Shown: piece after piece, positions 82 to 17,367 of the stretch | Layout: every line of letters starts with the position of its first letter | How positions within the stretch are numbered: position 1 is the first letter of the stretch | IMG/VR virus record: IMGVR_UViG_3300044796_000394 | DNA: 64,000 nt | Direction: 5' to 3' (one strand) | Origin: a virus | Taxonomy: Duplodnaviria; Heunggongvirae; Uroviricota; Caudoviricetes | Notes under the pieces: model-generated | Database searches by the model: none | What the model was told of the DNA's origin: nothing | Seen by the model: the letters and a program-made list of their open reading frames with translations, nothing else | Program-made: the position numbers and the translations under genes

Positions 82-747
82 ATGAAGAGGTATTTTGACC
101 GCATTGTATCCTTCGTTAACAATGAACGTGATAAGAAGTTCCTAGAAAATCTGCCGGGTAGCTCAGAAGTCATTCAAATTGAATGTAACCCAATCCACTT
201 GCCAGTTTCGGCAATGGGACACATTCAAACCCACGGTGATGATTTCCCCTTCGAGAGCATCTTCTACACCGAAGCCGACCAAATCCTCTATTGTACAGAC
301 CTTCCCGGTGTACTGGACAAGTGCGATGATACAACCTACGTGGTGCCTCACCGGTTCGTTAAGCTCCCTATTGCCGATAGACCGATGTTTACAACCAAGA
401 AGTACGATTTAGAGTCGCCGATTGTAATGTTTGATGGACGACCTTTTGAAATTCGCCATTACGTCGGAAGGGACAATCCAGAAAAAGAGCGGTTCTATCA
501 GGTTAAGAATAAATGGAGGGCATTTGGTGGTACATGGATTGCCAAACGCAATTTGTTCATGAAAACCAAGTTCAAGTTCGTGGATTACCAGCCGATTGAG
601 GAAGCTTGTTTTTCAATGTTTACAGATGATAGAAAGATGTATCGGACTTACGATCCTTATGATTTGTTCGTAGATCATTTGAGTGGATTTGAGCAGATAG
701 CTAGGGATTGTGGGATGGACATTTTGACATTGCCGGGAGGTTGGTAA
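82..747 (+). CDS. hypothetical protein (221 aa)
   Basis: Intact ORF with phage-like codon usage. It ends in a TAATG stop/start overlap with the next gene. No recognisable motif. Confidence 0.5.
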   Translation: MKRYFDRIVSFVNNERDKKFLENLPGSSEVIQIECNPIHLPVSAMGHIQTHGDDFPFESIFYTEADQILYCTDLPGVLDKCDDTTYVVPHRFVKLPIADRPMFTTKKYDLESPIVMFDGRPFEIRHYVGRDNPEKERFYQVKNKWRAFGGTWIAKRNLFMKTKFKFVDYQPIEEACFSMFTDDRKMYRTYDPYDLFVDHLSGFEQIARDCGMDILTLPGGW

Positions 748-1451
748 TGTACTCTGATTACGTCAAAAAATTAACTGCTGCTTGTGAAAAACGAAACTGG
801 AAATTAGACGGACAATATGAATTTCTGTCTATTAGGATCAATGAAGGGGCTAAAAAATCCGTTTGTTTTGCTGCTGGCATTCATGGGGACGAACCTGCCG
901 GGCCTGAAGCTATACTGAAATTTGTCAAAGAGGGTTCGGTACCTGATGATGTGTTTGTGATGTTGATGCCCGTGATCAACTCTTGGGGATATGCCAAAGG
1001 TACTCGCAGGAACGCTGCTAGGAAAGACATCAATAGACGATTTTGTGATAAGGTGTTAACTGGCGAAGCGGCTATTGTCAGTGATCTACTTAAAGAACAT
1101 CCTGTATCAATGTTGTGTTCTATGCATGAGTGGCCCGGACAGAATGGGTTTTACATGTACGCTTCTGACAAAGAGAAGAAAGAAGCGATATTGGGCATTC
1201 CGAAGATAGCCAGCGAATGGTTCAGGATTATCAATAATCGTAAAATTAACGATGAGTTTGTTGAGAATGGTATTATTTGGCATCCTGAAAAGAAGTACCG
1301 AAACAATAAGAGCAAATCGACATTAGAAAACAGGGTATTTCTTGATAAAACGCATTATGTTTGTTTGGAAACGCCGAGTGAGACGGATTTAGGCAAACGT
1401 TGCACTTGCCAATTCACCATCATGGAATATATAATCAAAGGAATTCTCTGA
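747..1451 (+). CDS. M14-family zinc carboxypeptidase / AstE-AspA-like deacylase
   Basis: GIHGDEPAG motif (GxHGxExxG zinc site) and a downstream CSMHEW His/Glu. GGAGG ribosome-binding site 6 nt upstream. Start coupled to the upstream stop by TAATG. Confidence 0.6.
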   Translation: MYSDYVKKLTAACEKRNWKLDGQYEFLSIRINEGAKKSVCFAAGIHGDEPAGPEAILKFVKEGSVPDDVFVMLMPVINSWGYAKGTRRNAARKDINRRFCDKVLTGEAAIVSDLLKEHPVSMLCSMHEWPGQNGFYMYASDKEKKEAILGIPKIASEWFRIINNRKINDEFVENGIIWHPEKKYRNNKSKSTLENRVFLDKTHYVCLETPSETDLGKRCTCQFTIMEYIIKGIL

Positions 1452-1462
1452 AGGAAAAAATT

Positions 1463-1771
1463 ATGTTAGAACTTACCGAAGATACGTTTAAGGCCGAAAT
1501 AGAAAACCATGCAGGTTTAGCAATTGTAGATTTTTACACGCCTGCTTGTGCTCCGTGTCGTGTACTCGCACCGGTGTTCAAGGCATCGGCAGATAAGCAT
1601 GTCGCAATCAAGCACGCCAAAATTGAACCTAGCAATGCACAGACTACCTTTGTGAATTTCGGCGTTAACTATGTGCCGACCTTGATTTTGTTCAAGGACG
1701 GTAAAGAACTTGCCCGCAAGGGATTTATGAACGCTGCTGAATTGGATGCTTGGTTGGAGCAAGCTCATTAA
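1463..1771 (+). CDS. thioredoxin-like protein
   Basis: C-A-P-C active site in a FYTPACAPCRVLAPVF context, about 100 aa, thioredoxin fold pattern. AAGGA ribosome-binding site upstream. Confidence 0.75.
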   Translation: MLELTEDTFKAEIENHAGLAIVDFYTPACAPCRVLAPVFKASADKHVAIKHAKIEPSNAQTTFVNFGVNYVPTLILFKDGKELARKGFMNAAELDAWLEQAH

Positions 1772-15349: not shown

Positions 15350-15497
15350 TTTTCTTCTTCTTTTTATCATCGGACAAAATTACGGGCTTTGGATACATTC
15401 TGCCTACTGATCCGCCGATAGGTCTGGCGAAGTTGGCAATATCCCCTGTACTTGTCATAGTTTCTTCGATGTTTTTTAACCATTCTCTAAAAGTCAT
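15327..15497 (-). CDS. small protein (56 aa) with N-terminal MTFREWLKNIEE motif
   Basis: Below the 60-aa cutoff of the ORF track. TAATG-coupled to the upstream gene. Paralogous N-terminus to the 39689 ORF (MMNFKEWLKINE). Confidence 0.5.
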   Translation of the reverse strand: MTFREWLKNIEETMTSTGDIANFARPIGGSVGRMYPKPVILSDDKKKKKNVKKENL

Positions 15498-15970
15498 TAC
15501 ATTCCTCCCATTGGTGGACCGCCGCCTCCGGTCGGACCAGCCAAAGTGTTACCCTGTGATTTCCATTGTACTCCACCGGAAGCCCCGGCGAAATCTGCTC
15601 CTTGATAATTAGGCGGTTCCATCAATTTCAGGAACGTATCACGTGTCATTGTGATTGATTTTTTGCCCAAATTATCAGCCGTGTCCAAATCTAATTCATC
15701 ATCAATATCGTCGCCATTACCATCTTTATCCAAAGCCGCATAGGGAATTGGTTTGATGGTAACCGTATGACTATCAAAGTCAGTGACGTAGAAAGCCGCC
15801 GGTTGGCGAATTAAGTGTCCGCCCAACTTAACATTGCTCAATGTGATCGGCATACCGAACCACAACTTTTTTGGAACTTTGAGTTGTTTTTTGATCGTAG
15901 AAACGTAGCTGTCAGGAGCTTCCGCTTTTTTCTCTACAAACAATTTAAACCCAACTAGCAAATTTGACAT
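15497..15970 (-). CDS. hypothetical protein
   Basis: 157-aa ORF with a Gly-rich C-terminus. Confidence 0.5.
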   Translation of the reverse strand: MSNLLVGFKLFVEKKAEAPDSYVSTIKKQLKVPKKLWFGMPITLSNVKLGGHLIRQPAAFYVTDFDSHTVTIKPIPYAALDKDGNGDDIDDELDLDTADNLGKKSITMTRDTFLKLMEPPNYQGADFAGASGGVQWKSQGNTLAGPTGGGGPPMGGM

Positions 15971-16002
15971 ACTCTATTTACACCTTGGGTTATAAATAGA
16001 CT

Positions 16003-17367
16003 ATGAAATTTAAGTCTTGGATTGCGGAAACTCTGAATTTTGATTCTCCTCAAAGGGCAGGCATGCAAACGCACCCTTTGGTTACAGGTGCTACAGTTGG
16101 TTTAGAGATAGAATTAATGACCCTCTCAATTCCTTACAAGGAATTTACACCTTTAATGTTAGCAAGGGCGTTATGGGATGCTGATGATTATAAATTTGAT
16201 GTTCAACAACGAATGAGATTGAATGCTGAATCTGAATATGATGATGATGAAGATTTGGATATGCGAGATTTGATTAACTGGGTTACGATGAATAAAAAAG
16301 AGGCTTACGATTATTTCAAACAACATCTTGAAAGTGGCCAGTTGAACTTAGGTAAAACCAGTACGGATTGGAAAGACGAAGTTGTTAAGTATTGGTCTAA
16401 ACACTTTATGAAAGCTATTGAGGCGGGAGGGTTTAAGGCTTTTTATGGTGCGCAATCTACGAAAGACTCTTGGGCTGTTGGCGATGATGGTCACGATACT
16501 ATGTACCATATCCCCATCTTGGAAATGAGGAGTTCCGTTATTCCTTATGCGGCGTTGCCAAATCTTCAAAAAGCGTTAACTGCGATTGCCGAAGTAATCA
16601 AAAACAATCCAGAAGATTTAATGGTTCAAAACAATACTGGTATCCACATTCACGTTGGTAATGCACGGACTGGCGATTTGAATGCCAAGGGCTGGCGTGG
16701 CGATCATATGGACATGTTTAGCCGGTTAGCCGCTGCCACTCATACGGACGAAGACAGCATTTGGGATACGATGTCAAAACACGATAGGGATTTTTCTCAA
16801 TTCGCTATGCTTAACAGACAGCAGGATTTTGAACAGACCCGGAGCGGGTACGGAAGTGCTCACAATGATATTATCAACCAACTGAACAACTTAAGGTACA
16901 AGAAAGAACCGACGATAACGGTCAGCAACAAAGACTTGTGGAACCGGGTCAAGCCCGACCGTAAGAGTGGAACAAGTGTCGTTTCAGAGCATCCGACAGT
17001 AGAATACCGACACTTTACATCGCAGGTGTTGATGGAGGCTGATGGCGTAGAAAAGATTATGGCGTGGATCAAGTATTTCGTTGATAATGCCGCTTCGCAA
17101 GTCAATAAAAATAGGATCAAGTTTGAGAATGACGAAGAGCGTATTATTCTGACGAAGTTGCCAAAGGATATGGTAAGAATTGACTTCCAAGACAAAGGAT
17201 CAAAAGCTAGAATTCCGCAACCCGGTATGCCAAGGGATGCGTTGATGGCGACTCCCAAGAGTGGGGTACGGGATACCGATCAAGGGTTCAAGCATTGGTG
17301 GGATAGATTAACGTGGCAGCAAAAGGCTCAGTACAGAAAAGACAAGGGCAGACCGCCTCTTGTTTAA
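16003..17367 (+). CDS. Amidoligase_2-family enzyme (second paralog)
   Basis: VGLEIELM (E-x-E) and NNTGIHIHVGN (H-x-H). N-terminal MKFKSWIAE motif. Confidence 0.55.
   Translation: MKFKSWIAETLNFDSPQRAGMQTHPLVTGATVGLEIELMTLSIPYKEFTPLMLARALWDADDYKFDVQQRMRLNAESEYDDDEDLDMRDLINWVTMNKKEAYDYFKQHLESGQLNLGKTSTDWKDEVVKYWSKHFMKAIEAGGFKAFYGAQSTKDSWAVGDDGHDTMYHIPILEMRSSVIPYAALPNLQKALTAIAEVIKNNPEDLMVQNNTGIHIHVGNARTGDLNAKGWRGDHMDMFSRLAAATHTDEDSIWDTMSKHDRDFSQFAMLNRQQDFEQTRSGYGSAHNDIINQLNNLRYKKEPTITVSNKDLWNRVKPDRKSGTSVVSEHPTVEYRHFTSQVLMEADGVEKIMAWIKYFVDNAASQVNKNRIKFENDEERIILTKLPKDMVRIDFQDKGSKARIPQPGMPRDALMATPKSGVRDTDQGFKHWWDRLTWQQKAQYRKDKGRPPLV

Follow-up and report, generated by a model that had tools for sequence, protein, structure and literature searches.

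The closest described relatives of the genes considered here form the phage amidoligase cassette of the phiEco32 / PA11 (TC6) / LUZ24 type, which was reportedly described by Iyer, Abhiman, Burroughs and Aravind in 2009 (Mol Biosyst). This module of amidoligase and glutamine amidotransferase (GATase) genes is said to have been known from sequence since that year, with no function assigned. In Escherichia coli, the glutamine synthetase (GS)-like gamma-glutamyl-putrescine synthetase PuuA is paired with PuuD, a C26 hydrolase of gamma-Glu-gamma-aminobutyrate (gamma-Glu-GABA) that later strips off the gamma-glutamyl group. Here we compare these systems with four genes from 64,000 nucleotides of phage DNA (IMG/VR record IMGVR_UViG_3300044796_000394; this whole stretch is referred to as the window). 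They encode two amidoligases (amidoligase 1 and amidoligase 2), a class-I GATase-fold enzyme of the Peptidase_C26 family (the C26 enzyme) and an M14-like hydrolase (Table 1). A sequence-only reading of this DNA had proposed that the four genes make up one system. We consider it an evenly balanced proposition that the region holds two separable things and not one operonic system, namely a set of dispersed early or middle enzymes and an independent amidoligase 2.

The window is part of a 614,480-bp metagenome contig from the Joint Genome Institute (JGI) and was also assembled in a 72-kb Logan contig. The latter gave 10 kb to the left of the window, and the examined sequence amounts to 74 kb of the 614-kb genome. 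Because it encodes a T4-type large terminase (TerL, 49763-51427(-)) and a Gp23-family capsid protein (29406-30359, from a Pfam scan), the window is phage DNA. A nucleotide search with positions 1-20000 gave no match among GenBank phages, relatives being found at the protein level only. The closest deposited genome is that of the uncultured phage LR756511.1 (595 kb), with amino-acid identities of 33-49%.

The association of an amidoligase with a class-I GATase is real and known, as the sequence-only reading had stated, since the nearest viral homologues of the C26 enzyme (36-40% identity) all head a contiguous cassette, in contigs L007-L009; the function of the module is still called unexplored (PMC10580990). 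The order in these contigs is C26, small open reading frame (ORF), PF14395 COOH-NH2 ligase, ORF, Amidoligase_2, class-II GATase and ATP-grasp, and the annotations of Pseudomonas phage TC6 and of the crAss-like phage cr108_1 show the same cassette. A version without C26 has been described for LUZ24-like phages (PMC3890496). The window has Amidoligase_2 in common with the phiEco32/PA11-type cassette, which likewise lies beside replication genes, and its C26 enzyme is 33-40% identical to those of the PA11, cr108_1 and L007-L009 cassettes. In contrast to the window, where 6 kb separate the two shared members, the phiEco32/PA11-type cassette is contiguous and includes a PF14395 ligase, a class-II (N-terminal nucleophile, Ntn) GATase and an ATP-grasp enzyme. 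PF14395, class-II GATase (GATase_6) and ATP-grasp were not found in the window ORFs, either by Pfam or by tblastn with the L007 cassette proteins, nor in precomputed Pfam results over the first 27 kb of the window and the 10 kb upstream. Conversely, the window adds to the cassette an M14-type hydrolase and a second, leader-tagged ligase.

The M14-like hydrolase, amidoligase 1 and the C26 enzyme

All four ORFs coincide with the independent gene calls of public contigs bearing this sequence (234, 348, 223 and 454 aa, with 346 aa for amidoligase 1 in the Logan call), and the ExE, HxH, GICRGSQ and HPE motifs previously quoted for them are present in the translations. The family assignments made in the sequence-only reading also hold. 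The Pfam search that it had suggested as a check returned Amidoligase_2, GATase/C26 and AstE_AspA/M14 and no unrelated family, with scores above the cutoff for three of the ORFs; amidoligase 2 fell below it (8.4e-4, 19.7 bits against a gathering cutoff of 22), but members of its family do match PF12224.

Amidoligase 1 matched Amidoligase_2 with 56.5 bits (5e-15, cutoff 22) in Pfam and the PHROG 'amidoligase enzyme' at 1.9e-17. Its motifs GIELEIN (E24, E26), VHVHVE (H122, H124) and VEFR (209-211) represent the collinear ExE, HxH and E-[FY]-R motifs expected of PF12224, and the catalytic fold of glutamine synthetase and Glu-Cys ligase, a further mark of this family, was recognised as well. When the family was aligned including the cassette amidoligases, H122, H124 and E209-F210-R211 were invariant, whereas E24 and E26 were outside the invariant list. 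Orthologues are 71-73% identical in the related contigs L006, L014 and L016 and 44% identical in LR756511.1, and the identity with the cassette amidoligases of phage TC6 and L007 is 24%. By profile, amidoligase 1 is a PF12224 ligase, and ATP-dependent carboxylate-amine ligation is predicted from its family.

The C26 enzyme gave clear matches to Peptidase_C26 (1.2e-23, 84.5 bits against a cutoff of 20.5), to GATase (2.5e-8) and to the PHROG glutamine amidotransferase (5e-36), and its catalytic triad is represented by C93 in GICRGSQ and by H195 and E197 in FHPE. The nearest solved sequences are PuuD (6vtv, 2.8e-8) and then Lin1909. The nearest NCBIfam models are gamma-glutamyl-CDP-amidate hydrolase and then the gamma-Glu-GABA hydrolase PuuD; both scores are far under their cutoffs (44 against 250 and 40 against 266) and no NCBIfam equivalog was assigned. 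Judged by these comparisons, the C26 enzyme is closest to gamma-glutamyl-amide hydrolases. The likeness to the E. coli Puu pathway thus concerns PuuD, the closest solved sequence and second-best NCBIfam model, and the combination, by family, of a GS-fold ATP-dependent ligase with a C26 hydrolase. However, the similarity to PuuD is weak (37 bits; 39.7 against 266 in NCBIfam), the ligases of the window are of the Amidoligase_2 branch and not of the PuuA-type GS type I branch, and no polyamine oxidase or dehydrogenase genes are present in the window.

Immediately upstream of the C26 gene, and overlapping its start with the stop codon, lies a gene for a 186-aa protein with a ParB/sulfiredoxin-type DGHHR motif (10260-10820(+)). 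A homologue is located 700 bp upstream of an amidoligase 2 homologue in contig L005, while those in two other huge-phage contigs follow an HNH gene with no C26/GATase nearby. In view of the DGHHR motif and of the homologues that occur without C26, we rejected the idea that this protein is dedicated to the GATase or provides a connection with amidoligase 2.

The M14-like protein matched AstE_AspA_cat (1.5e-6, 28.4 bits against a cutoff of 25) and Peptidase_M14 (1.3e-3). Its motifs GIHGDEP (H46, E49), R87, N96-R97, MHEW (H127) and LETP (E208) provide a full active site, and all seven residues are invariant in 15 homologues. Only one GenBank phage record is found in this family of 15 close homologues. 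In Foldseek, an AlphaFold2 (AF2) model with a predicted local distance difference test (pLDDT) score of 85.9 was most similar to the Shewanella metallopeptidases 3b2y/2qvp/3ieh (TM 0.75; E 1.7e-12 to 3b2y), followed by bacterial cytosolic carboxypeptidases (CCPs), REP34, CCP5, AstE, DoeB and Csd4. The top NCBIfam model was the Shewanella-type N-acetylornithine deacetylase (3.3e-12; 46 bits against a cutoff of 400). By sequence, the protein is a complete M14/AstE-type zinc hydrolase despite its small size. It shares its fold and the complete HxxE...R...NR...H...E catalytic set with the M14 deacylases and carboxypeptidases that reverse amide ligation (AstE, the Shewanella-type N-acetylornithine deacetylase, the CCP deglutamylases and Csd4/MpaA), and differs from AstE/CCP/Csd4-type enzymes in being a compact, single-domain form of 234 aa.

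With regard to gene order, L006, L014, L016 and the window (41-73% identity) have the same arrangement: (gp32)-RecA-x-M14-like-thioredoxin-variable gene-HNH(-)-170-aa gene(-)-amidoligase 1-small ORFs-DEAD helicase. Since this order is kept in four contigs, the M14-like gene and amidoligase 1 are stable members of the replication block of the clade, and they are the only two of the four enzyme genes that are syntenic in relatives. The C26 gene is absent downstream of the helicase in L006 and L014, and amidoligase 2 is absent at the matching site of L006. In LR756511.1, only the 170-aa gene, amidoligase 1, a 153-aa gene and the helicase stay together; the M14-like gene is found 27 kb from amidoligase 1, on the opposite strand and in unrelated surroundings.

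In the window itself, the four enzyme genes are 2-6 kb apart, with about 25 other genes between them, in a region of replication and DNA methylation. The intervening genes include those for a thioredoxin, an MT-A70 methylase, an HNH protein, a DEAD helicase, a ParB-like protein and an Eco57I-type methylase, and gp32, two further methylases and RecA are located to the left of the window. The run is also interrupted by minus-strand genes and by a bidirectional terminator-like hairpin (7460-7478), which divides the helicase from the amidoligase 1 block. Ordinary ribosome-binding sites precede the three genes (a GGAGG Shine-Dalgarno sequence for the M14-like gene, GGAG for amidoligase 1 and a GGAG-type site for the C26 gene), and none of them has the box described below for amidoligase 2.

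We propose that the M14-type deacylase, amidoligase 1 and the C26 enzyme are early or middle enzymes with ordinary Shine-Dalgarno sites, encoded among replication, recombination and methylase genes. The M14-like gene and amidoligase 1 would be fixed in the gp32-RecA-...-helicase block of the clade, the C26 hydrolase would have been acquired in a variable stretch, and the three together may represent a reduced, dispersed relative of the phiEco32/PA11-type cassette. Following the chemistry of its family, amidoligase 1 would use ATP to activate a carboxylate as an acyl phosphate, which would then be joined to an amine or ammonia. The C26 enzyme could cleave a gamma-glutamyl amide, either freeing NH3 from glutamine for the ligase or stripping off a gamma-glutamyl group, and the M14 enzyme may take off a C-terminal or N-acyl-linked amino acid. 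The joint outcome would be a gamma-glutamyl or peptide-type amide that is written and trimmed on some substrate, for which PuuA/PuuD and ligase/deglutamylase pairs are the nearest working analogies.

Amidoligase 2, its leader and the upstream box

Amidoligase 2 carries the motifs GLEIELM (E35, E37), IHIHVG (H215, H217) and VEYR (334-336). Only seven close homologues were found among 5.8 billion clustered proteins. Because the ExE, HxH and E-Y-R motifs are invariant in all eight members (the window protein and these seven), and because PF12224 is the sole family matched by three of the eight (best E 4.1e-8), amidoligase 2 is a GS-fold amidoligase, although a very divergent one. The wider family contains 112 proteins at E <= 1e-3 among 1.84 billion, with none in PHROGs, in 50,697 GenBank phage records or in LR756511.1. 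The two ligases had been described as paralogous in the sequence-only reading. Each is indeed of the Amidoligase_2 type, but we reject recent paralogy, as BLASTP aligned them with 21% identity over 120 aa at E 0.009 and a comparison of the two family alignments with hhalign gave a probability of 2% (E 0.02). The GS-fold protein taggers, Pup ligase PafA and depupylase Dop, scored below GS, glutamate-cysteine ligase (GCL) and YbdK, with about 9-10% identity, and no Pup-like substrate gene was identified here.

The homologues of the two minus-strand genes that flank amidoligase 2 are only 236 bp apart in L006, compared to 1,634 bp in the window, and amidoligase 2 is therefore an insertion. In contigs with amidoligase 2 homologues, no C26, M14 or Amidoligase_2 neighbour was seen.

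The T4 capsid-targeting sequence (CTS), MKTYQEFIAE, is cleaved off internal proteins and is sufficient for packaging foreign proteins (PMC8442874; PMC3012670), and the N-terminal leader of amidoligase 2 resembles it. This leader is kept in all close homologues, with M1 and E9 invariant in the eight members; among 116 proteins representing the wider family, 22 have the strict motif and others relaxed versions of it. In the structural model, the leader lies outside the fold (residues 1-17, pLDDT <50). A scan of the first nine residues of the window proteins for F-[KR]-x-[WFY]-[ILMVF]-(x)-E showed this pattern at the N-terminus of six of 90, against 0.017 expected from shuffles, and behind an alternative Met in two more. 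The consensus in the window is M-x-F-K-x-[WFY]-[ILM]-(x)-E. Five of the carriers are located within 15.5-23.6 kb, around amidoligase 2, and the carriers have no mutual similarity otherwise. Among them are a NUDIX enzyme (61021-61548(-), 2.5e-7 in Pfam) and three proteins whose matches stay below threshold, with GNAT for 18461-19003 and for 39810-40184 (E about 1e-3 to 2e-3) and with PARP/Tpt1 for 19897-20856 (E 0.015-0.025). The leader is also present on other proteins of the related contigs L001, L002, L006 and L014, and was not found in unrelated cassette phages. This enrichment and modularity are evidence that the leader is a modular N-terminal signal.

Amidoligase 2 further differs from the other three enzyme genes in its start context, as it lacks a Shine-Dalgarno sequence and is preceded by the box TATAAATA, the consensus of T4 late promoters. 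Exactly two TATAAATA sites occur in the window (15991-15998(+) and 61817-61810(-)), both directly upstream of leader carriers. A TA[AT]ATA box at most 14 nt from the start was found for 7 of 10 carriers and for 7 of 80 other genes (Fisher p 4.4e-5), and TA[AT]ATA sites lie 4-6 nt upstream of several starts, e.g. at 13492, 14320, 15982(-) and 23631. A similar box precedes amidoligase 2 homologues in L002 and L005. As the box abuts start codons without Shine-Dalgarno sequences, it points to a separate class of transcripts that have very short leaders or none. A TAAATA box is also located upstream of a 1487-aa ORF beside the leader-gene cluster (24069-28532(-)), which has no match in Pfam or PHROG.

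Like the window carriers, the T4 internal proteins and Alt, which are packaged by means of the CTS, are otherwise unrelated proteins with a short N-terminal leader ending in I-A-E. In the window, the genes with this leader gather in a variable region, and the phage has TerL and Gp23 of the T4 type. We know of no amidoligase among T4-type packaged proteins. By analogy with these systems, amidoligase 2 is probably a late-expressed and probably a capsid-packaged ligase. It would have been acquired independently, made late, targeted to the prohead with the leader-tagged NUDIX, GNAT-like and ADP-ribosyltransferase (ART)-like proteins, and delivered with the DNA. The putative injection motif noted in the sequence-only reading is thus real, far above chance and kept in orthologues; the action on host targets after entry that was proposed along with it is suggested by the likeness to the CTS. 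The complete proposal is that huge T4-related phages use a CTS-like leader to load this undescribed GS-fold ligase family into their capsids and inject it with the DNA, within an arsenal of leader-tagged proteins expressed from late-type TATAAATA boxes, and that the injected enzyme covalently attaches an amino acid or amine to a protein or metabolite of the host at the very start of infection. This proposal is tentative and, taken as a whole, stands well short of an even chance.

Three observations weigh against packaging. Most amidoligase 2 homologues have F-I-E or Y-L-E before the conserved Glu and not the (L/I)-x-E of T4; a T4 late promoter would not usually lie as close to the ATG as the box does (4-5 nt); and Pfam scans of the window ORFs revealed no prohead protease gene anywhere in the window, in addition to the T4-like TerL and the Gp23-family protein of the head machinery. 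An explanation that we regard as possible, though on the doubtful side, is that the N-terminal motif has nothing to do with packaging. It could be an adaptation for translation initiation on leaderless mRNAs or those without Shine-Dalgarno sequences, or it could direct the proteins to some other place or to turnover, in which case amidoligase 2 would act in the producing cell. Besides the short distance of the box and the missing protease, the carriers are mostly without Shine-Dalgarno sequences, their first codons are A/T-rich (ATG AAA TTT AAG), and position P3 of the putative cleavage site is often aromatic. However, conservation is at the amino-acid level, with synonymous or conservative changes (TTT/TTC, AAA/AAG/AGA, W/F/Y, I/L/M) and an invariant E, and seven non-carrier genes have the box without the motif. 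Furthermore, the motif closely matches the experimentally defined CTS of T4 (PMC8442874, PMC3012670) in a phage with T4-type TerL and Gp23, and the cargo types resemble known injected effectors.

Table 1. Position and description of the enzyme genes, signals and context genes discussed in the text
Feature	Position	Strand	Description
M14-like hydrolase	747..1451	+	M14/AstE-AspA-type zinc carboxypeptidase or deacylase, 234 aa, full active site
170-aa protein	2956..3468	-	Conserved, divergent neighbour of amidoligase 1; context only
Amidoligase 1	3589..4635	+	Amidoligase_2 (PF12224) carboxylate-amine ligase, 348 aa
DEAD/DEAH helicase	7489..9513	+	Pfam DEAD 2.5e-28, Helicase_C 5e-14; neighbour downstream of the amidoligase 1 block, context only
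C26 enzyme	10817..11488	+	Peptidase_C26 / class-I glutamine-amidotransferase-fold enzyme, 223 aa; GTG start overlaps the stop of the upstream gene
Leader-motif gene	15497..15970	-	Shared N-terminal motif
TATAAATA box	15991..15998	+	Ends 4 nt before the amidoligase 2 ATG; no Shine-Dalgarno sequence
Amidoligase 2	16003..17367	+	Divergent GS-fold amidoligase of a small metagenome-only family, 454 aa; shared N-terminal motif
Leader of amidoligase 2	16003..16029	+	MKFKSWIAE; resembles the T4 capsid-targeting sequence
Leader-motif gene	18461..19003	-	Shared N-terminal motif
Leader-motif gene	19960..20856	+	Shared N-terminal motif
Leader-motif gene	22449..23420	-	Shared N-terminal motif
Leader-motif gene	23417..23599	-	Shared N-terminal motif
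Leader-motif gene	39810..40184	-	Shared N-terminal motif
Leader-motif gene	48022..48306	+	Shared N-terminal motif
Leader-motif gene	61021..61548	-	Shared N-terminal motif
Leader-motif gene	61548..61778	-	Shared N-terminal motif

Cooperation, base modification and nicotinate salvage

The division into dispersed enzymes and an independent amidoligase 2 has to be weighed against explanations that join the genes differently; these are not all mutually exclusive. Some observations speak against the division. Only 74 kb of the 614-kb genome was covered, so that the missing cassette members could lie elsewhere. Conservation of position within one clade may be plain synteny, which tells little about function. 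Finally, in a genome of 614 kb, four rare amide-bond families share one strand of a 17-kb stretch, for which a crude estimate gives a chance of about 1e-4. This clustering is above random and therefore leaves room for cooperation of all four enzymes.

In such a single pathway, as the sequence-only reading had it, the two ligases would add groups in turn, the C26 enzyme would supply ammonia or edit, and the M14 enzyme would trim, with the genes merely interspersed among others. In addition to the clustering on the plus strand, the canonical cassette combines C26 with an Amidoligase_2 ligase, the clade has retained the M14-like gene together with amidoligase 1, both of which are also present in LR756511.1, and the four families are rare in phages (30, 61, 1 and 0 of the 50,697 records). 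We nevertheless regard this pathway as unlikely. The cassette is not in the window, some 25 genes separate the four, and relatives that keep the M14-like gene and amidoligase 1 lack the C26 gene and amidoligase 2 at the corresponding sites. Amidoligase 2 homologues are found in contigs without the other three, and both the start context and the leader of amidoligase 2 set its expression signals apart. The run is broken by the terminator-like hairpin and the minus-strand genes, and LR756511.1 has no amidoligase 2 and encodes its M14-like protein and amidoligase 1 on different strands at a distance of 27 kb. As a description of one system, the sequence-only reading is only partly supported.

A second explanation would give amidoligase 1, the C26 enzyme and perhaps the M14 enzyme a part in hypermodifying the bases of the phage DNA, where they might, for instance, ligate or amidate an adduct of the amino-acid type. 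The genes are set among gp32, RecA, a DEAD helicase, an HNH gene, a ParB-like protein and at least four DNA methyltransferases; amidoligase 1 is near the helicase even in LR756511.1, and canonical cassettes also adjoin primase/helicase genes. Lee et al. (2021) observed in viromes that Pfam amidoligase and amidotransferase genes, of unknown function, are co-associated with thymidine-hypermodification genes (PMC8989533). No such thymidine-hypermodification genes were found by Pfam scans of the window ORFs and the 10 kb upstream, and the same scans gave no kinase, pyrophosphorylase, hydroxymethylase or TET/JBP family. The sole 2-oxoglutarate (2OG) oxygenase is AlkB-like and 17 kb away. We find this explanation improbable.

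That an amidoligase and a GATase replace NadE in phage nicotinate salvage is of low probability, since linkage evidence is lacking, even though PncB and a nicotinamidase-like gene are present in the window. The salvage set consists of a nicotinate phosphoribosyltransferase scoring above its NCBIfam equivalog cutoff (42351-43547(+)), an isochorismatase/nicotinamidase-like protein (60259-60864(+)), the leader-tagged NUDIX protein (61021-61548(-)) and a nucleoside 2-deoxyribosyltransferase-like protein (43557-44045(+)); no NadE was seen among the window proteins scanned.

Neighbouring genes and implications

The 170-aa gene adjoins amidoligase 1 in L006, L014, L016 and LR756511.1, and its product has no match in Pfam or PHROG. 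Together with an HNH endonuclease gene (2333-2950(-)), it diverges from amidoligase 1, and the position of both is constant in four related contigs, which argues against the HNH gene being a freely mobile homing endonuclease. The position of the DEAD helicase is syntenic in L001, L006, L014 and L016. Its orthologue in L016 (16049-19396) contains an intein with a LAGLIDADG endonuclease and that in L006 (13132-16185) has an interruption of about 1.1 kb, whereas the window copy is uninterrupted. A sigma-70 promoter scan gave 33 sites against 37.5 in shuffles, i.e. not above shuffle level, and was not used.

Methyltransferase genes are unusually dense and mixed with the replication genes (1746-2336(+), 11964-13496(+), 45862-46608(+) and 52207-53007(+)), with further ones upstream of the window (L012, 2969-3814 and 4388-5548). 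The types represented are MT-A70, two Eco57I-type N6 methyltransferases, N6_N4_Mtase, a D12-class enzyme and a generic S-adenosylmethionine (SAM) methyltransferase. An HldE-like bifunctional heptose-7-phosphate kinase/adenylyltransferase (46605-48014(+), 1.3e-86, below the equivalog cutoff) and a weak match to family-9 heptosyltransferases (17604-18461(-)) were also found, and the phage may make ADP-heptose for glycosylation of some target. Two tandem SPFH/Band-7 proteins with N-terminal membrane anchors (31215-32825(+) and 32877-34469(+)) are encoded where the GC content of the window is highest (53% compared to about 42%). Other accessory proteins are an AlkB-like 2OG-Fe(II) oxygenase (28513-29097(+)), a sulfatase (35565-36734(-)), a cysteine-dioxygenase-like cupin (49322-49762(-)), a ferritin-like protein (54971-55423(+)) and a TnsA-like endonuclease (40181-40843(-)).

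The enzyme families and the link between amidoligase and GATase are known already, while the dispersed arrangement, the stable M14 partner, the metagenome-only ligase family and the CTS-like leader on that family appear to be new. The window shows that parts of the amidoligase/GATase module can be separated and redistributed, one ligase being stably paired with an M14 'eraser' in the replication block and a separate ligase family being apparently virion cargo. If the leader does target proteins to the head, it would provide a simple sequence rule for spotting injected effectors in uncultured huge phages, and ATP-dependent amide ligation would join the chemistry of injected enzymes, which so far includes ADP-ribosylation and inhibitors of restriction enzymes.

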